DNA of 10,110 bases from IMG/VR virus record IMGVR_UViG_3300010280_000146; one strand, 5' to 3'. Source of the DNA: a virus (taxonomy: Duplodnaviria > Heunggongvirae > Uroviricota > Caudoviricetes). The notes beneath the pieces are model-generated. The model was not told the origin of the DNA. It searched no databases and saw nothing but the letters and a program-made list of their open reading frames with translations. This document shows, one piece after another, positions 250 to 8,808 of this stretch. Made by a program: the position numbers and the translations under genes. Numbering within the stretch: the stretch's first letter is position 1; the number at the start of each line of letters is the position of its first letter.

Positions 250-285
250 GACGGTATTACCTTAAAGGTATACTCTCATACCGTC
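250..285. promoter_or_regulatory. Inverted repeat GACGGTA...TACCGTC enclosing a TTACC-N5-GGTAT operator-like site (257-271) upstream of int
   Basis: Arms at 250-256 and 279-285 are exact reverse complements; the inner 15-mer TTACCTTAAAGGTAT matches the palindrome found in the other promoter regions at 9 of 10 half-site positions. Confidence 0.35.
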
Positions 286-313: not shown

Positions 314-1564
314 GTGCTTACCGATACAAAATTAAAAAACCTCAAGCCGCAGGACAAACTGTACAAGGTCTCCGATCGTGACGGGCTGTATGTAGCTGTT
401 CTTACGTCAGGCACGGTCTCGTTTCGCTACGACTACCGTATCAACGGTCGCCGCGAAACGCTGGTAATCGGGCAGTATGGGCGTGACGGTATCAGCCTGG
501 CAGAAGCGCGAGAAGAACTGATTGCTGCAAAGAAGTTGCTTAAAGCAGGCCAGTCACCGGCTGCGGCTAAACGTGACGGTATCAAAAAGATTCGTGGTGC
601 TGAGACGTTTGCGGTACATACCGACAGTTATATGAAACACGTCATCCTGGCTGAAAGTACCCGCGCAATGAAGCAGGCAGTGATCGACCGTGACATACTT
701 CCTGTTCTTGGCAACAAAATGATGGCTGAAATTACCACATCGATGGTTCGTGATTTGTGTGACCGGATTGTCGAACGCGGTGGCCGGGCAACAGCAGTGC
801 AGGCCAGGGAGATCATCAGCAGCGTATACCGTCACGCCAATGACCGTGGTCATGGTTTGTTTAATCCTGCAGCTGACATTAAACCTTCGTCTATCGCCAT
901 ATTTAAACCACGAGAGCGAACACTGACACCAGAAGAAATTGGCCTGTTCTTCCGCACGTTGGATGCCATTGGTGCTATGGGCACTATGAAAATGGCTTTA
1001 AAGCTGGTGCTTATCACTATGGTTCGTAAAGGCGAATTCACCAATGCAACGTGGGATGAAATAGATTTTAAAAAATGGACATGGACAATTCCTTCAGACC
1101 GCATGAAGGGAAGCCGGGCGCACGTTATTTACCTGCCTAAACAGGCACAGGATATATTGGTCGGGTTGCAGATGTGCGCTGGTGGAAGTGAATATCTGGT
1201 TCCTGGTCGTTACAATTTCCGGAAGCCATTATCTAATGCCGCGCTGAACTCTCTGATCGACAGAACGGTGAAAATAATAAATGAAGATGGTGAGCATATT
1301 CAGGACTTCACTGTACATGATATGCGCCGTACAGCCAGTACATTGTTGCATGAGGCTGGTTATCCTTCAGACTGGATTGAAAAGGCTCTGGCACATGAGC
1401 AGAAAGGTGTGCGCGCCGTATATAACAAAGCGGAATACGCTAGACAGCGCGCCTACATGTTGCAGCAGTGGGCCGATATGATTGATTCCTGGATTAACGG
1501 GGATCATACGGATCTGATTCCGTTCTCCCCGTCGAAGTTTGAGAAGTGGATGGCGGGGGAATAA
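314..1564 (+). CDS. int: Tyrosine recombinase / phage integrase, P4-type (N-terminal arm-binding DUF4102-like domain plus catalytic domain)
   Basis: 416-aa ORF with GTG start. N-terminus LTDTKLKNLKP...LYVAVLTSGTVSFRYDYRINGRRETLVIGQYG is typical of P4-like integrase arm-binding domains; C-terminal HDMRRT (HxxR box) and VRAVYNKAEY (catalytic Tyr region). Sits next to a host gene 3' end. Confidence 0.9.
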   Translation: MLTDTKLKNLKPQDKLYKVSDRDGLYVAVLTSGTVSFRYDYRINGRRETLVIGQYGRDGISLAEAREELIAAKKLLKAGQSPAAAKRDGIKKIRGAETFAVHTDSYMKHVILAESTRAMKQAVIDRDILPVLGNKMMAEITTSMVRDLCDRIVERGGRATAVQAREIISSVYRHANDRGHGLFNPAADIKPSSIAIFKPRERTLTPEEIGLFFRTLDAIGAMGTMKMALKLVLITMVRKGEFTNATWDEIDFKKWTWTIPSDRMKGSRAHVIYLPKQAQDILVGLQMCAGGSEYLVPGRYNFRKPLSNAALNSLIDRTVKIINEDGEHIQDFTVHDMRRTASTLLHEAGYPSDWIEKALAHEQKGVRAVYNKAEYARQRAYMLQQWADMIDSWINGDHTDLIPFSPSKFEKWMAGE

Positions 1565-3108: not shown

Positions 3109-3990
3109 TTACATAGATGTTTCGTTTAATTCTTCCCGACGAACGCTGTAAACGTCGGTGGCTTTTGCCAGCAGTTCGTCATCATCTGAAAGTTTTTGTG
3201 CAATGTATTTGTAAGCCTTATCCAGTTCGGAGACAGTGCTGTAATTCATCGCTGCGCTGGTAAAGGCCATCAGCATTTCTTCTGGATCACGGCTATCCGC
3301 TTTACGCGTTTGCTCATCAGGCTTTTTCACTGGTTTAGCGTTGATCAGACTGTTCATTCCCGCAGCAGTGGTCGTTTGCGGAGTAATGTCTCGCTCAACG
3401 CGCGGTGCCGTTTCCTGTAATTCGTCTGGGGTGTAAACACCGAGAAGTACATCAGGAGCGTGCAGGCGAGCCCATCGTTTCGTGCAAAGATAGGCAAGTT
3501 GCTGGCGCGGATCCTGTTCCCACAATGGAGAGTTACGCACTCCGGCTTGCGCCATACTGATGGTAAGCTCACGGGGTTCTGCTTCTCCTTTAAGAACTGC
3601 TGACACAGTTACCGTCAGATTCGGTGATTTATCTGTTTTGCCGTTAACATTCGACCAGTCACCGCTCCAGCGATAATTCAGGCGTGTCGCTAGCAGGCTG
3701 GAAGAGGATACGACCGCGTTTACCAACTGTGCTTCGTAGCCTAACGTTCCGTTTACCACATGCGTTTTCTGCGCCACGGCGAAAGGGTTCATTCCCCACT
3801 GTGCCGCCTGCATGGTCACCGCCAGGCAATCGGCAGGTTTGCCTTCAAGATGTTTCGGTACAGTCGCTTTGCTTTGTGACATCAACTCCGCGAAACGCAC
3901 CAGTTGATTCATGCCATCGGGGCTGAAGATTGCCGCAGCAGTGCCCACAGTTGCGCCTGGTTGTGATGTGATTGCGATATCATTGCTCAT
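3109..3990 (-). CDS. Bet/RecT-superfamily single-strand annealing protein (lambda Bet-like recombinase)
   Basis: 293 aa; segments MQAAQWGMNPF, NSPLWEQDP...RWARLHAPDVLLGVYTPDE and ERDITP parallel lambda Bet motifs (QYGLNPW, TGPWQSHP...QCARLAFGFAGIYDKDE, ERDITP) as recalled from memory. ATGA overlap with the upstream exonuclease gene. Confidence 0.85.
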   Translation of the reverse strand: MSNDIAITSQPGATVGTAAAIFSPDGMNQLVRFAELMSQSKATVPKHLEGKPADCLAVTMQAAQWGMNPFAVAQKTHVVNGTLGYEAQLVNAVVSSSSLLATRLNYRWSGDWSNVNGKTDKSPNLTVTVSAVLKGEAEPRELTISMAQAGVRNSPLWEQDPRQQLAYLCTKRWARLHAPDVLLGVYTPDELQETAPRVERDITPQTTTAAGMNSLINAKPVKKPDEQTRKADSRDPEEMLMAFTSAAMNYSTVSELDKAYKYIAQKLSDDDELLAKATDVYSVRREELNETSM

Positions 3991-4808
3991 ACGTACATAT
4001 CCTGTTTACGTGCCCAGTCAGGGCGTTTAATAATTTCCACTCCGCCCCATTCATCGTTGATGCGGCATTCGTGGTAGGTATTCAGATCCCGGCGGAACAG
4101 AGCGTGCCCGGCATCGACATCTGGCGCATCCAGCTCGAACACGCGTACCGGATACCGACCACAATCAATGCTTTCGCTCACGGCAAGAAAGAAAAAACCA
4201 TGCGGCTGACCAGTAACCCTCATTGCGCCTTCGCGGTACATTGCGTCCTGCACGTGGTAGCGGAATTCCTCGATGTGGCGTGCAAAACGGTCCATATCCG
4301 CAACCTTTTTCACGTCGACGATCACGTTGTGCTCGTTCAGCCATTTGTCTGGACGAATTCGGCACAACTCACCCGTTTCTTCATCGTTCCAGTACATTGA
4401 TGCTTCGCAGTAACCAGGTGCTTCCAACATCCAGCGTGCCGCCGGATGAGCCATTGCGCTATCACGCATCAGCTCCAGTTTTCGCCACTGCTCGACATCA
4501 AGTACCGCAATACCCATATCCGTCACATCACGAAGAAATGCTTCTTCGTCAGCTTTACCTTGTTTTGTCCGACGATCGAATTTCGGTGAAACGATGAAGC
4601 GTTTGTCGAATTCTCCAGGTTCCAGAAGCAGGCAGTGCAATGCGGTTCCCATATCCAGTGCAGAATTTTTCTCTTCGTCTTCTGGTGCTGCCTGAATCCA
4701 TTTAAGAAGCGCCGGATTCTTGGCAACCATGTCCAGTTGCGACTTACTCACGCCGTCACCGGCGTGGTAGTCTTCGTTGCTGATGTCGAAATAAATTCCC
4801 GGTTTCAT
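3987..4808 (-). CDS. RecE-like PD-(D/E)XK exonuclease (exodeoxyribonuclease VIII-like; partner of the annealing protein)
   Basis: 273 aa; N-terminal GIYFDISNEDYH and the nuclease core RIRPDKW...VIVDVKKV (D...D/E-x-K) plus YHVQDAMY resemble RecE C-terminal-domain-type nucleases; directly upstream of and coupled to the Bet-like gene. Confidence 0.8.
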   Translation of the reverse strand: MKPGIYFDISNEDYHAGDGVSKSQLDMVAKNPALLKWIQAAPEDEEKNSALDMGTALHCLLLEPGEFDKRFIVSPKFDRRTKQGKADEEAFLRDVTDMGIAVLDVEQWRKLELMRDSAMAHPAARWMLEAPGYCEASMYWNDEETGELCRIRPDKWLNEHNVIVDVKKVADMDRFARHIEEFRYHVQDAMYREGAMRVTGQPHGFFFLAVSESIDCGRYPVRVFELDAPDVDAGHALFRRDLNTYHECRINDEWGGVEIIKRPDWARKQDMYV

Positions 4809-5278: not shown

Positions 5279-5293
5279 TTACCGTTGAGGTAA
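5279..5293. promoter_or_regulatory. Operator-like palindrome TTACC GTTGA GGTAA (leftward early promoter region, site 1)
   Basis: Perfect 5-bp inverted half-sites with a 5-bp spacer; overlaps the putative -10 and start-site region of the leftward promoter. Confidence 0.45.
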
Positions 5294-5321
5294 TAATTAT
5301 GCGTATCTGGTTTGATGTCAA
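5293..5321 (-). promoter_or_regulatory. Putative pL-like sigma70 promoter for the leftward recombination operon
   Basis: Minus-strand -35 TTGACA (plus 5316-5321, perfect consensus), 17-bp spacer, -10 AATTAT (plus 5293-5298); flanked by the two palindromic sites. Confidence 0.4.
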
Positions 5322-5340
5322 TAGATATGAGTTAAAAAAA

Positions 5341-5355
5341 TTACCCGTTAGGTAA
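5341..5355. promoter_or_regulatory. Operator-like palindrome TTACC CGTTA GGTAA (leftward early promoter region, site 2)
   Basis: Perfect inverted half-sites; centre is 62 bp from the centre of site 5279-5293. Confidence 0.45.
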
Positions 5356-5365
5356 TCGAATAGGC

Positions 5366-5390
5366 AATAAAAAAGCCGCCATAAGGCGGC
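5366..5390 (-). terminator. Rho-independent terminator of the repressor-candidate gene
   Basis: On the minus strand: stem GCCGCC / GGCGGC with loop TTAT followed by TTTTTATTG, 23 nt downstream of the stop at 5413-5415. Confidence 0.6.
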
Positions 5391-5412
5391 TTACTTACTG
5401 AAAAATATGATT

Positions 5413-5997
5413 TTATTGTTTGTTTTTTTCGTTCTGGTTGATGACAAATTCAATGTAACTTTCGATCTTTGCCTTCTCTGTTTCAGGTAACAATGCGTAG
5501 CGCGAGCGGTCATAGTTGATAGTTGCAGGGTCATGCGGATGAATCAGTAGTTCATATCCGTGACGCCCGAATGCAGATGCAACATTCTCCAGGGTGGAAA
5601 TGGAAACGCTGACCTCATTGTTTAACAGGCGGCTTATTGTCACCTGGGCGACGCCGGATGCGCGGTGAAGTTTTCCCTGAGTTGAAAGGTCGCGGCTTTC
5701 ACTCATCCAGCGTTCCAGGTTGTGAGCTGCCAGCTGACCAATGTCGCTTGGGCCGACAGGCTGAAAACCTTCCTGAGAAAGCGAGCGATCGATATCAAGC
5801 CAGTTACGGGGTTTATTGGCGGCAGCTTCAATTTTTCGCGCAACCTGGTCGCCGATAACCTTCTTGCCAAGAGCCCAGCGGTTTACCAGATTTGCCTGAG
5901 TTCCAAGTTTTTCTGCCATCCGCGTCTGAACACCATTGAATTCACGGTCGATCAAGTCGTTGAGATTTTGCCTGCGGACGTCCTGGATACTTTTCAT
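5413..5997 (-). CDS. Tandem helix-turn-helix (two XRE-type HTH domains) transcriptional regulator; candidate prophage repressor
   Basis: 194 aa. First HTH around GVQTRMAEKLGTQANLVNRWALGKKVIGDQVARKIEAA, second around LHRASGVAQVTISRLLNNEVSVSISTLENVASAF. No LexA/S24 peptidase motifs seen. Placed like cI, divergent from a Cro-like gene, with its own terminator. Confidence 0.75.
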   Translation of the reverse strand: MKSIQDVRRQNLNDLIDREFNGVQTRMAEKLGTQANLVNRWALGKKVIGDQVARKIEAAANKPRNWLDIDRSLSQEGFQPVGPSDIGQLAAHNLERWMSESRDLSTQGKLHRASGVAQVTISRLLNNEVSVSISTLENVASAFGRHGYELLIHPHDPATINYDRSRYALLPETEKAKIESYIEFVINQNEKNKQ

Positions 5998-6052: not shown

Positions 6053-6067
6053 TTACCCAACAGGTAA
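6053..6067. promoter_or_regulatory. Operator-like palindrome TTACC CAACA GGTAA (divergent promoter region, site 1)
   Basis: Perfect inverted half-sites between the repressor-candidate start (5997) and the Cro-like start (6152). Confidence 0.45.
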
Positions 6068-6069
6068 AT

Positions 6070-6084
6070 GCACCCCATAGGTAA
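6070..6084. promoter_or_regulatory. Degenerate operator-like site GCACC CCATA GGTAA (divergent promoter region, site 2)
   Basis: Right half-site perfect, left half-site 3 of 5; centre 17 bp from site 1. Confidence 0.3.
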
Positions 6085-6090
6085 CTATCC

Positions 6091-6127
6091 TTGATTTTTG
6101 TTACCTTATGGGTGAATATTTATTATC
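6091..6127 (+). promoter_or_regulatory. Putative pR-like promoter for the Cro-like gene (element assignment ambiguous)
   Basis: Candidate -35 TTGATT (6091-6096) or TTGTTA (6099-6104) with -10 TATTAT (6121-6126, 16-bp spacer from the latter); overlaps operator-like site 3. Confidence 0.3.
6101..6115. promoter_or_regulatory. Operator-like site TTACC TTATG GGTGA (divergent promoter region, site 3)
   Basis: Left half-site perfect, right half-site 4 of 5; overlaps the candidate rightward promoter. Confidence 0.35.
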
Positions 6128-6151: not shown

Positions 6152-6382
6152 ATGAGCGATAACGGACATTTCGATTTCAAAAAGCACTGGCTTGCACTTA
6201 CTCCGGATGAGCGTGAAGCCTTCGCACAGGAAGCCGGAACGACGAGTCACTATATCCAGACTCACTTAACAGGTAAGCGCAAAATGCCAGGTAAGGTATT
6301 GATGAATGGGCTTTTTAAAGCCTGTAAAACAAGACAATGGCTGCGCTCAAAAGCGGAACTGGCATACTTCTTCTACTCATGA
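6152..6382 (+). CDS. Cro/YdaS-like small HTH regulator
   Basis: 76 aa; LTPDEREAFAQEAGTTSHYIQTHLTGKRKMPGKVLMNGLFKACK fits Cro/CI-type and YdaS-like HTH proteins. Divergent from the repressor candidate and followed by a terminator. Confidence 0.7.
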   Translation: MSDNGHFDFKKHWLALTPDEREAFAQEAGTTSHYIQTHLTGKRKMPGKVLMNGLFKACKTRQWLRSKAELAYFFYS

Positions 6383-6403
6383 TATCTGGCAACAACCCTC
6401 TGT

Positions 6404-6427
6404 AGACCGCCATCCGGCGGTCTTTTC
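6404..6427 (+). terminator. Rho-independent terminator directly after the Cro-like gene
   Basis: Stem AGACCGCC (6404-6411) / GGCGGTCT (6416-6423), loop ATCC, then a short T-run (6424-6426). Confidence 0.55.
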
Positions 6428-6437
6428 ATATCTATTC

Positions 6438-6452
6438 GTACCTCAAAGGTAA
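6438..6452. promoter_or_regulatory. Operator-like site GTACC TCAAA GGTAA upstream of the replication operon
   Basis: 9 of 10 half-site positions match TTACC/GGTAA; lies between the cro terminator and the 66-aa gene, followed by a TTGATA -35-like hexamer at 6470-6475. Confidence 0.3.
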
Positions 6453-6532
6453 TAAAAAACCAAATCTGGTTGATATTTTTTTTGTGTCAGCACAAAATAA
6501 CCGTAATCCCAATACTAATAACAGGGCTTACC

Positions 6533-6733
6533 ATGGAAATCATTACACGTATTGATGCCGCAAAGCGCGGACTTAAACGCTACTACACCGGAAAACCATG
6601 TAAGCACGGACATGACAGTGAACGCTGGGTTTACAACGGACACTGTGTTGAGTGCACCATGGAATCAAACCGTCGCATCAGGGCAGAGATTAAGCAGATC
6701 ATGATTAATTCCTCCCCACAACATTCAAGCTGA
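6533..6733 (+). CDS. Small Cys/His-containing (putative zinc-binding) protein at the cII-equivalent position
   Basis: Preferred internal ATG 6533 of track ORF 6470..6733. 66 aa, MEIITRIDAAKRGLKRYYTGKPCKHGHDSERWVYNGHCVECT..., with a C-x-H-x-H ... C-x-x-C arrangement. The track's upstream extension is hydrophobic and lies in promoter DNA. Confidence 0.55.
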   Translation: MEIITRIDAAKRGLKRYYTGKPCKHGHDSERWVYNGHCVECTMESNRRIRAEIKQIMINSSPQHSS

Positions 6734-6748
6734 TAGCGGAGATTAATC

Positions 6749-7564
6749 ATGAGCAGACATGCAACAGATTGGGCCTGGGAGACAGATCCAGGTAGCTCGT
6801 CATTAAAGCTCATACTGCTCTCGATGGCTGACAGAGCCGATGAATATAACCTCTGCTACCCCAGCATAGAACGCCTCGTTAAAGACACTTGTCTGAATAA
6901 AAAAACCGTGCAGGCCGGGCTTATATCGCTCATGAAAATGGGGCTTATTTCAGATACCGGAGAGAGAAAGGGAGCGACAAAAAGAGTGCGGGTTTTCTCT
7001 CTTAATATAACCAAAAACGGGAACATTAAAGGCAACCGGGAGGGGGGCAATGAACCCGAAAACGGTAATGTTACCGAAAACGGGAATATACCCAAAAACG
7101 GGATGTTGAATGATCCCAAAAACGGGATGTTGAATGATCCCAAAAACGGGATCCAGAACCAGTCATATAACCGGTCATTTAACCAAGAGAGGGAGAGCAG
7201 GACAAAAAACGGGGATTCTGTGTCTCATGACCCCGGCGCAAACAACGCCGTGATGAATAACTTTGTTCCTCCTGGTGGGCCAGGGCAATTAGGCAAATTT
7301 GTCATGCATGAACAATGGCAGCCATCAGATGACTTTCTTCGGAAAAGCTCATTGCAGGGAATCTACCTGGATAGTCTGCCAACGGCACAGGAACTTGCAG
7401 AGTTCAGAATTTACTGGATGGCTGAGGGTAAGGCATACCATCAGGCACAGTGGGAGCAGAAGCTGGCAAGGCGGCTGCAGATTAGCAGACAGAAGCAATC
7501 AACATTACCTGATAACAACGTTCCGCACTGGAACAGCCCTGAAGCGTGGGAGGATTTCTTGTGA
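6749..7564 (+). CDS. Replication initiator (O-like): N-terminal winged-HTH domain, Asn/Gly-rich repeat linker, C-terminal DnaT-like domain
   Basis: 271 aa. N-terminus MSRHATDWAWE...LKLILLSMADRADE...SIERLVKDTCLNKKTVQAGLISLMKMGLIS (HTH_36-like). C-terminus WQPSDDFLRKSSLQGIYLDSLPTAQELAEFRIYWMAEGKAYHQAQWEQKLARRLQISRQ closely parallels the E. coli DnaT C-terminal region (WQPDADF...[29 protein letters not shown], recalled). RBS GGAG 8 nt upstream. Confidence 0.85.
   Translation: MSRHATDWAWETDPGSSSLKLILLSMADRADEYNLCYPSIERLVKDTCLNKKTVQAGLISLMKMGLISDTGERKGATKRVRVFSLNITKNGNIKGNREGGNEPENGNVTENGNIPKNGMLNDPKNGMLNDPKNGIQNQSYNRSFNQERESRTKNGDSVSHDPGANNAVMNNFVPPGGPGQLGKFVMHEQWQPSDDFLRKSSLQGIYLDSLPTAQELAEFRIYWMAEGKAYHQAQWEQKLARRLQISRQKQSTLPDNNVPHWNSPEAWEDFL
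7011..7150 (+). repeat. Iteron-like direct repeats inside the O-like gene (candidate origin of replication)
   Basis: Six copies of the core C(C)nAAAACGG(G) at 7011, 7055, 7075, 7091, 7115 and 7139, including two exact 24-bp tandem units CCCAAAAACGGGATGTTGAATGAT (7091-7114, 7115-7138); they encode the repeated NGMLNDPK linker. Confidence 0.6.
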
Positions 7565-8346
7565 ACAACGTTTTTACCGCGATACAAAACCGTGACGGAG
7601 AAGCCCTTTCTCGCATGTCAGGTTATGAGCATCAGTACACCAACAATGACAACGTGGTGAACATGTCAGCAGAGAGGCTTGTTGATGCCCTTTTCAAACA
7701 GCTGAAACAACTGTTTCCGGCGGCAGTGGTAACCAACCTGAAGACGCCAGAGCAGGAAGTTGCTGCAAAACAGCAGTGGATTGCTGCGTTTGCCGAAGGG
7801 GGGATCCGAACCCGTGAACAGGTTTCTGCTGGTATGCGCCACGCCCGCGCCAGTGAATCTCCGTTCTGGCCGTCGCCAGGGCAATTCATCAAGTGGTGTA
7901 AAGACAGCAAGATGGTTCTTGGCGTCACCATTGACGATGTGATGGCGGAGTTTCACCGGTACAGCAAGGAAAAAAGTTTATATCCTGGTGGTCCCGAAAG
8001 ATTCCCGTGGCGGCATCCGGTTATGTACTGGGTCGTATGTGATACCCGCCGTGCAATGTATCAGCGCCAGCTTAGCGAGATTGAGGTTGAGAAACACGCG
8101 CGCAGGCTGCTCGATGATTGGGCGAAAAAGGTGGCTTCCGGACAGCAGATACCCGATCCGGTGATCAGCATACAGGCAAAGCCAGAGCCCATGAGTACAC
8201 CTCCGGACACAGGGAGAGACGTTTACCATCCACCAGGGCGAAGTTTCGGGTGCATGCCTAACGCCGCCACTCTGGGGGGAATAACACCGGCGCAGTGGCT
8301 GATGGAGGAATACAGGCGGGGAAAGGCGGCAGGATTTATCAAGTAA
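7561..8346 (+). CDS. Lambda P-like replication protein (DnaB helicase loader)
   Basis: GTG 7561 with GGGAGG 7 nt upstream, overlapping the O-like stop (GTGA). FPAAVVTNLKTPEQEVAAKQQWIAAFAEGGIRTREQVSAGMRHARASESPFWPSPGQFIKWC parallels lambda P (FPASLANRDQNEVNEIRRQWVLAFRENGITTMEQVNAGMRVARRQNRPFLPSPGQFVAWC, recalled). The track start at 7546 is an alternative. Confidence 0.75.
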   Translation: MNNVFTAIQNRDGEALSRMSGYEHQYTNNDNVVNMSAERLVDALFKQLKQLFPAAVVTNLKTPEQEVAAKQQWIAAFAEGGIRTREQVSAGMRHARASESPFWPSPGQFIKWCKDSKMVLGVTIDDVMAEFHRYSKEKSLYPGGPERFPWRHPVMYWVVCDTRRAMYQRQLSEIEVEKHARRLLDDWAKKVASGQQIPDPVISIQAKPEPMSTPPDTGRDVYHPPGRSFGCMPNAATLGGITPAQWLMEEYRRGKAAGFIK

Positions 8347-8383
8347 TACCAGCGCGATAGCGCATTTTTTTACGCCTTGATAA

Positions 8384-8398
8384 TTACCTTTTGGGTAA
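8384..8398. promoter_or_regulatory. Operator-like palindrome TTACC TTTTG GGTAA downstream of the P-like gene
   Basis: Perfect inverted half-sites in the AT-rich intergenic region 8347-8463. Confidence 0.4.
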
Positions 8399-8445
8399 TA
8401 AAGTATTCTAAACTCTATTGATTTCGTGTCTTATGTGGTTTTTAA

Positions 8446-8460
8446 TTACCTCAGGGGTAA
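8446..8460. promoter_or_regulatory. Operator-like palindrome TTACC TCAGG GGTAA abutting the DUF1064 gene start
   Basis: Perfect inverted half-sites ending 3 nt before ATG 8464 and overlapping the likely RBS; centre 62 bp from site 8384-8398. Confidence 0.4.
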
Positions 8461-8463
8461 ATC

Positions 8464-8808
8464 ATGAGAAAACAGATACAGGCTCTTGGTCGACTCAAAA
8501 CAGGCCAGATGAACAAAACAGAATCTGCGTATTGCCAGCACCTTGAGCTGCGTAAACGTGCAGGAGAAATCGTCTGGTATCGATTTGAGGGTATCAAGCT
8601 GCGGTTAGCTGACAACACGTTCTATACGCCCGATTTTGCTGTGATGCTCGCCACCGGCGAGATGGAACTGCACGAAGTGAAAGGTTTCTGGACCGACGAC
8701 GCCAGGGTGAAAACCAAAGTCGCCGCAGATCAGTATCCGTTCCGAATCATCGGGGTAACGGTTAAACCAAAGAAAGCAGGTGGTGGCTGGAACATCGAAG
8801 AGTTCTGA
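8464..8808 (+). CDS. DUF1064-family phage protein (nuclease-like fold, function unknown)
   Basis: 114 aa; NKTESAYCQHLELRKRAGEIVWYRFEGIKLRL...YTPDFAVMLATGEMELHEVKGFWTDDARVKTKVAADQYP fits the DUF1064 pattern as recalled. Confidence 0.65.
   Translation: MRKQIQALGRLKTGQMNKTESAYCQHLELRKRAGEIVWYRFEGIKLRLADNTFYTPDFAVMLATGEMELHEVKGFWTDDARVKTKVAADQYPFRIIGVTVKPKKAGGGWNIEEF

Follow-up and report, generated by a model that had tools for sequence, protein, structure and literature searches.

In the 10,110-nt stretch of viral DNA analyzed here (IMG/VR record IMGVR_UViG_3300010280_000146, Caudoviricetes; hereafter the window), the gap at 6383-6532 separates a small gene in the position of lambda cro from a replication operon that encodes a 66-residue protein, an O-like initiator and a P-like helicase loader. 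This gap is probably the conserved boundary of two early transcription units, at which a separate promoter (P_rep) drives the replication genes under the control of the phage repressor, Rep. As judged by sequence comparison, the window is a prophage of the phiV10/epsilon15/SPC32H type: the 1.6 kb around the gap match Escherichia phage phiV10 and related phages (genus Uetakevirus, epsilon15 group) at 97-98% identity, and 541 of 5426 complete E. coli genomes contain this 1.6-kb region. An earlier note on this DNA had proposed a stable terminator (6404-6427) after a Cro-like gene, followed by an operator-like site (6438-6452) and a -35-like TTGATA (6470-6475) ahead of the three replication genes. 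All three elements are present, the TTGATA being paired with CAAAAT across 17 bp, and the downstream genes are as described (Table 1). The further claim, that the replication operon has its own operator-controlled promoter, holds for the promoter, which is conserved; operator control does not follow in the same way, since the site (O_rep) lies ~60 bp upstream of the inferred start, off the -35 and -10 elements.

Evidence for this reading comes from the comparison of related phages. Using the 66-residue protein as an anchor, we gathered the 175 nt upstream of its gene from phages epsilon15 and SPC32H, Enterobacter phage Tyrion and Klebsiella phage BUCT711, from five of the seven genomes returned by a GTDB scan (the other two were unrelated), and from 159 of 160 IMG/VR contigs (one was too short). 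The resulting 168 loci, which are not independent of one another, were clustered at 93% identity into 20 lineages. In 19 of the 20, the operon is preceded by the same cassette of hairpin, operator (0-2 mismatches), -35 and -10. The distance from the operator to TTGAT(A/C) is 18 bp in these lineages (17 bp in one), and the -10 reads (C/G/A)AAAAT behind a spacer of 16-17 bp, except for CAGATT in lineage L119 and AATTAT at a spacer of 19 bp in lineage L004. Conservation over the 19 lineages was highest in the -35 and its adjoining GG (0.98), the right half of the operator, GGTAAT (0.965), and the -10 (0.94), followed by the left half of the operator (0.855); it fell to 0.70 in the promoter spacer, 0.69 in the leader, 0.55 between the stop codon and the hairpin, and 0.54 in the center of the operator. 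Conserved half-sites and hexamers around a drifting center and spacer are the pattern of protein-contacted positions, and this pattern lends both operator and promoter much more credibility than their individual matches would. Counted by locus, the right half-site is GGTAAT in 160 cases and GGTAAC in 7, and the promoter spacer is 16-17 bp in 163 of 167. Of 167 loci, 158 have a gap of 18 bp between operator and -35, seven have one of 17 bp and two have one of 19 bp. Because this gap is fixed while its sequence drifts, the operator and P_rep appear to work together.

The core of O_rep (TACCTCAAAGGTA) is an exact TACC-N5-GGTA palindrome. Compared with the longer form ATTACC-N5-GGTAAT, its right half is perfect, while the left half (cgTACC) differs in the outer two bases. 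The GenBank record of epsilon15 (AY150271.2) lists four 'protein_bind: repressor' features with this longer form; our knowledge of the operator was drawn from such feature tables and from citing papers. The window contains 11 matches to TACC-N5-GGTA with at most one mismatch, compared with 1.8 expected, and none of 200 shuffles equaled this count. Seven of the matches are exact, each adjoining a top-scoring promoter candidate, and nine of the 11 fall in non-coding gaps (at 258, 5280, 5342, 6054, 6071, 6102, 6439, 8385 and 8447). We set aside the other two, at 4757 in the exonuclease gene and 8347 at the P-like stop codon, as probable chance matches with one mismatch each. O_rep is kept at the same place in all five phages compared and in 167 of the 168 loci, with one mismatch (GGTG) in epsilon15 and SPC32H. 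The protein that we infer to bind the palindrome is the window's Rep, a full-length homologue of SPC32H Rep (PDB 5D50, E = 1.9e-41) without a peptidase domain. By its motif, its cognate repressor and its conserved position, all read from sequence, O_rep is a member of the Uetakevirus Rep operator set. One paper reports that SPC32H Rep binds DNA as a tetramer and is removed by an antirepressor (PMC9638917); another proposes a tetramerization domain like those of regulators that loop DNA, and calls the mechanism of repression 'not extensively characterized' (PMC9986798).

The hexamers of P_rep match the consensus at 9 of 12 positions. This match alone is not significant, since the window holds 8 comparable hexamer pairs against 12.7 expected. 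With a simple, approximate sigma-70 weight matrix built on consensus frequencies, P_rep ranked fourth among all window positions on both strands, and the first four ranks (8377-8404; 5321-5293, the leftward promoter pL; 6098-6126, the rightward promoter pR; and 6470-6498) are the four operator-associated promoters. Taken with the conservation, these scores make it very probable that the replication operon is served by a promoter of its own, adjoining a phage repressor site. A CCAWWTNYGG box by the -35 was considered as a repeated motif and rejected, as its single occurrence in the window is at chance level. In the gap that separates operator and -35, roughly at -48 to -40 of P_rep, lineages L004, L007 and L126 (and Tyrion L003, L006 and L095) carry TTATCCAAA or TTATCCATA, in place of which the window has AAAACCAAA. 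Both forms resemble a DnaA box, and TTATCCAAA is the R3 sequence of oriC; the element could tie transcription of the replication genes to DnaA, or could reflect chance in A+T-rich DNA.

Upstream of the operator, a hairpin with the stem AGACCGCC-ATCC-GGCGGTCT (eight pairs, six of them G-C, with an AUCC loop) begins 21 nt past the stop codon at 6382. Its predicted stability of -15.0 kcal/mol (z = -4.2) was reached by one of 200 shuffles, and its 81-nt context is also more stable than expected (z = -3.1). The same feature is recorded in the phiV10 GenBank entry as a 'putative rho-independent terminator' (33078-33100). Hairpins of -11 to -24 kcal/mol occur in 19 of the 20 lineages, as judged by folding each sequence separately, because MAFFT mis-registers loops of differing length. 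In lineage L141, the stem is unrelated (GAGCCACUC/GAGUGGCUU) and precedes a U6 tract; a stem so entirely different points to selection on the hairpin structure itself. Covariation in the hairpin is weak, with double changes in two of five pairs only, and the GCCGCC core is itself conserved. The tail of the window's hairpin, TTTT at 6424-6427 followed by CATATCT, satisfies the scan rule of five T in eight, and the tract is short. Tyrion and several further lineages share this UUUUCAU tail, and three lineages, including L141, have U6. In contrast, epsilon15, SPC32H, the Klebsiella phages and others carry the non-canonical UCCUUCC, UCCUGCC or UAAGCC. Thus, of the stable terminator expected by the earlier note, the hairpin is well founded, but termination in the window, with four U's and a tail replaced in some relatives, is likely yet probably incomplete. 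An additional role of the hairpin in the group as a whole, such as protection of RNA 3' ends, is conceivable.

Between the stop codon and the hairpin (6383-6403; 20-25 nt across lineages), most lineages have a C-rich, G-poor stretch of poorly conserved sequence (e.g. CAACAACCCTCTGTA, TCCCCATCA, CTCCCTCTCT), which could be a short Rho-loading region or merely the 5' flank of the terminator. An antisense promoter-like site at 6406-6379 (minus strand) was rejected, as it is weak and lies within the least conserved segment.

In the mechanism that we propose, transcripts from pR would mostly end at 6427, after the Cro-position gene, and the replication genes would be transcribed mainly from P_rep, from a start near 6505 and with a 28-nt leader. 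In a lysogen, tetrameric Rep at about -60 would keep P_rep off. Rep could interfere with the alpha subunit of RNA polymerase on the A-rich upstream DNA, as GalR does at gal OE; the second pair of DNA-binding domains in the tetramer could reach a weak half-site just past the -10; or the tetramer could loop to the odd third operator of the rightward operator region (OR), 337-385 bp away. The half-site, 59-60 bp from O_rep, reads AACC in the window and ATTACC in epsilon15-type leaders, and is not conserved in Tyrion and BUCT711. A second full operator 62 bp downstream of O_rep, as found at pL, is absent. Polymerases escaping the terminator would, in addition, be hindered by bound Rep. Once Rep was removed by the antirepressor, pL, pR, P_rep and the promoter after the P-like gene (post-P) would open together, and each early operon would be gated directly through dispersed operators and not through an antitermination cascade of the lambda type.

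Several observations weigh against such gating. O_rep sits outside the core promoter, whereas the operators at pL, pR, post-P and the candidate int promoter overlap the core, which makes repression from a single site at -60 the weakest link in the proposal. The -10, CAAAAT, is weak, so P_rep may need an activator. About half of the lineages lack a usable U-tract behind the hairpin; termination is therefore not universal for the cassette, and a substantial contribution may come from pR by read-through. Of 167 loci, 84 have TACC as the left half-site and 72 have CACC. Lineage L171, which has the same core at its OR and leftward operators (OL), has only a half-site (GTTACC) in this gap, 10 bp closer to the -35. 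Finally, all 20 lineages share the TACC/GGTA core, including those with Reps only 42-45% identical, and a test for co-variation between the site and repressor specificity is thus uninformative. The L171 locus (2330-2500), from an IMG/VR lineage with a Rep homologue, is a natural variant that could reveal what the site contributes.

The position of the site at about -60, outside the core promoter, can also be explained if P_rep is a true promoter whose operator is not the Rep site. O_rep would then serve as a looping partner of OR and pR, as a roadblock behind a leaky terminator, or as both, and P_rep would be silent in the lysogen on other grounds, for example if its weak -10 depended on an early activator. 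There are parallels: lac O2 lies ~400 bp downstream of O1, and the 'stoperators' of mycobacteriophage L5 exemplify a roadblock. An odd number of OR sites, together with a Rep tetramer that reportedly binds DNA through two domain pairs, would suit a loop, and in all five phages O_rep is 337-388 bp from the OR sites. A roadblock would suit a site lying 11 bp past the terminator tail; the upstream pL operator likewise stands behind the rep terminator, where read-through from constitutive rep transcription must stop. Yet a roadblock or a distant partner would tolerate insertions and deletions, and nearly all loci preserve the 18 bp between operator and -35 despite drift. The distance to OR also varies by 4 bp between phages (337-341 bp), or ~0.4 helical turn, which leaves helical phasing uninformative. 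In addition, a replication promoter free of repression would be hazardous for a prophage. We consider this explanation unlikely.

It is more doubtful still that the -35 and -10 are not a working promoter and that the replication genes are reached by read-through from pR, owing to leakiness or to unrecognized antitermination. The chance-level hexamer match and the U-tract, short in the window and absent from many relatives, would agree with this, and the pL operon encodes PerC-like and AlpA-family regulators. Against it, the -35 and -10 are conserved at 94-98% with a 16-17-bp spacing in 19 lineages while the spacer and leader drift, and P_rep takes its rank beside the other three operator-linked promoters. 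Nor did the scans made find a nut-like site, an N or Q homologue or an Rfam element. Between pR and the terminator, boxA (CGCTCTTA) with at most one mismatch was absent except for a minus-strand match at the start codon, and no boxB hairpin was found upstream of the terminator, which is itself the only hairpin. Rfam returned three sub-threshold matches in all, none in this region. The family scan, which covered only the ten window open reading frames starting at 4805 and reaching the right end, returned no N- or Q-like antiterminator, and the phiV10 and epsilon15 stretches examined carry no antiterminator annotation. A divergent antiterminator, unrecognized by family searches, is possible. With none of these signals detected and the -35 and -10 conserved in relatives, the other option raised by the earlier note, that the replication genes require antitermination at this terminator, finds no support here.

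We give least credence to the idea that the Cro-position protein or Rep uses the palindrome for class I activation of P_rep, with replication as a delayed-early function: its center near -60 recalls CRP, which activates from -61.5, its phasing to the -35 is strictly fixed, the -10 is weak and lambdoid Cro and repressor share operators, but nothing indicates that the 76-residue protein binds the motif, it would make little sense for the lysogenic repressor to switch on replication genes, and at the other lytic promoters the motif overlaps the core, where only repression is possible.

Table 1. Features of the window that bear on the boundary at 6383-6532, and the surrounding operators, promoters and genes
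Feature	Coordinates	Strand	Description
Intrinsic terminator	6404-6427	+	Stem-loop 6404-6423 plus UUUU; from folding, scan and phiV10 annotation
Rep operator O_rep	6437-6453		cgTACC-TCAAA-GGTAAT; core 6439-6451, center 6445, ~-60 from the inferred start
Linker	6454-6469	+	A-tract plus CCAAATCTGG; 16 bp, sets the 18-bp gap from operator core to -35
Promoter P_rep (putative)	6470-6498	+	-35 TTGATA 6470-6475, 17 bp, -10 CAAAAT 6493-6498; start inferred at ~6505
Integrase (int)	314-1564		First in gene order
Methylase, then AlpA-family protein			Between integrase and RecT in gene order
RecT	3109-3990	-
Exonuclease	3987-4808	-
Rep repressor	5413-5997	-	194 aa; two helix-turn-helix-like domains; Pfam and PHROG matches
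Cro-position gene	6152-6382	+	76 aa; first gene of the rightward early transcript
Conserved 66-aa protein	6533-6733	+	Cys/His-rich, phrog_1081; replication operon, gene 1
O-like replication initiator	6749-7564	+	HTH_36 and DnaT domains; iteron-like repeats inside, 7054-7152
Lambda-P-like helicase loader	7546-8346	+	PF06992, E = 1.5e-56
DUF1064 protein	8464-8808		Downstream of the P-like gene
Lone Rep operator	258-270		In the spacer of candidate P_int (248-274), 44 bp before the int start codon
pL cassette	5280-5392	-	rep terminator 5392-5373, CTATTCG, operator 5342-5354, -35 TTGACA and -10 AATTAT (5321-5293), operator 5280-5292
OR	6054-6114		Operators 6054-6066, 6071-6083 and 6102-6114, around candidate pR (6098-6126) and candidate PRM
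Post-P cassette	8352-8459	+	Weak hairpin 8352-8363 plus T7, promoter 8377-8404, operator 8385-8397 in the spacer, operator 8447-8459

The other operators place O_rep in a wider arrangement. The pL promoter has one operator over its start site and another 62 bp upstream of the first. The upstream half of this cassette (terminator, CTATTCG, operator, ~20 bp, -35) has the same order and the same heptamer as the gap before the replication genes, and on sequence P_rep looks like a pL-type cassette minus its core operator. Pairs of operators 62 bp apart, start to start, occur at pL and post-P in the window and in the five phages, with the exception of the BUCT711 pL pair (63 bp); a third site, 76 bp further on, occurs at pL in epsilon15 and SPC32H. 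To judge from this recurrent spacing, each pair may be bridged by a single Rep tetramer. The candidate int promoter is weak (GTGACG at 248-253, TATACT at 269-274). Its operator recurs in phiV10, epsilon15, Tyrion and BUCT711 (the stretch of SPC32H analyzed ends inside int), and Rep may control integrase expression directly. Across the phiV10 genome, 10 exact sites occur, mostly intergenic, compared with 0.59 expected from base composition. Beyond the early region of this genome (DQ126339.2; L173), palindromes occur at 88, 106, 3253 and 20498 and near-matches at 20878 and 24693, that is, before terminase and late genes, near the antirepressor-like p23 and beside the O-acetyltransferase gene oac, which suggests a genome-wide repressor regulon.

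We tentatively extend this pattern, with less than even confidence, to all early operons of Uetakevirus (int, pL, pR, replication and post-replication). Each might be a terminator-Rep operator-promoter cassette without antitermination, in which one tetramer bridges sites in fixed geometries: 62-bp pairs that bracket or follow core promoters, and lone sites that pair over a distance. The site at -60 of P_rep would then be half of a Rep loop or wrap. If true, this would be a geometry of repression not yet described for the SPC32H-type 'trans' tetramer.

Among the neighboring genes, the Cro-position gene was called Cro-like in the earlier note, a label that is moderately supported. Its 76-residue product matches phrog_35 ('transcriptional repressor', E = 5.6e-13), and an AlphaFold2 model has five helices (mean confidence, as predicted local distance difference test, pLDDT, 81.6). 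The fold similarity is weak: the best hits, YdaS and 434-type helix-turn-helix domains, had template-modeling (TM) scores of 0.56-0.62 at E ~1, and none was significant. Within the O-like gene, tandem repeats at 7054-7185 (18 bp x 2.8; 24 bp x 2.6 at 100% identity, CCCAAAAACGGGATGTTGAATGAT; and 12 bp x 2.4) look like origin iterons, by analogy with the lambda origin inside O. The region annotated in phiV10 as a single fused 'RecET' (29722-31482) corresponds in the window to two open reading frames with a 4-base overlap (3109-4808, minus strand), reflecting either a frameshift difference or an artefact of the phiV10 annotation. At 108-124, ATTGAGTGGGAATGATT is identical to the att core reported for vB_EcoP_ZX5, a phage with its integration site at the 3' end of guaA (PMC9782041), and the left end of the window is probably a prophage-host junction or the attP region.

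Since the terminator is annotated in phiV10 and the motif in epsilon15, the novelty of these results is modest. O_rep is annotated neither in epsilon15 nor in the other records examined; in these records, the same holds for the fixed relation of O_rep to P_rep and for the genus-wide design of the cassette. This is ordinary, well-conserved phage gene control and involves no new principle. Its interest lies in a widespread group of E. coli, Salmonella and Klebsiella prophages that appears to wire its replication genes differently from lambda, and in a map of sites for the SPC32H-type Rep tetramer, a protein of solved structure whose mechanism is less clear: 62-bp pairs, the OR triple, and lone sites at -60 of P_rep and in the int promoter. 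In practice, the promoter and operator are relevant to phiV10-based reporter phages and to predicting which prophages are able to replicate on induction.

The earlier note had set this arrangement against lambda, where cro and the replication genes are transcribed together from pR, and this contrast was overstated. In lambda, the Rho-dependent terminator tR1 directly follows cro, and transcription from pR reaches cII, O and P by partial read-through and N antitermination; a terminator behind the first rightward gene is therefore the lambda pattern. The window and lambda also share O and P genes downstream and iteron-like repeats in the O gene, and transcription through or near the origin, textbook knowledge for lambda, likely matters for replication in both. 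They differ in what follows. In lambda, N acting at nutR overcomes tR1, and the region lacks an internal promoter or operator, whereas the window has an intrinsic terminator, no detected boxA or N, and a conserved promoter and repressor site behind it.

Dispersed operators are known from P1, where the C1 operator Op53 controls the lytic replicon kilA-repL, and from L5, where gp71 acts at its stoperators in an orientation-dependent manner. As in these phages, a single repressor has many scattered sites, both intergenic and at several promoters (10 exact ones in phiV10), replication would be gated directly by the immunity repressor, and some sites may be able to block an elongating polymerase. 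The likeness is functional only: the sites of P1 and L5 are asymmetric, whereas those here are palindromic and belong to a Rep of the SPC32H family, and the repressor families are apparently different. With respect to geometry, O_rep resembles gal OE, where GalR binds at -60.5, and lac O2 and O3, in that a palindrome ~60 bp upstream of the start, off the core promoter, is paired with a repressor able to bridge two operators; unlike gal and lac, the matching downstream position holds a half-site and no second full operator. Finally, relative to epsilon15 and SPC32H (Uetakevirus; Rep/Ant, PDB 5D50 and 5D4Z), the window differs in the usable U-tract behind its hairpin and agrees in the palindrome, the homologous repressor, the gene order and the 62-bp operator pairs.

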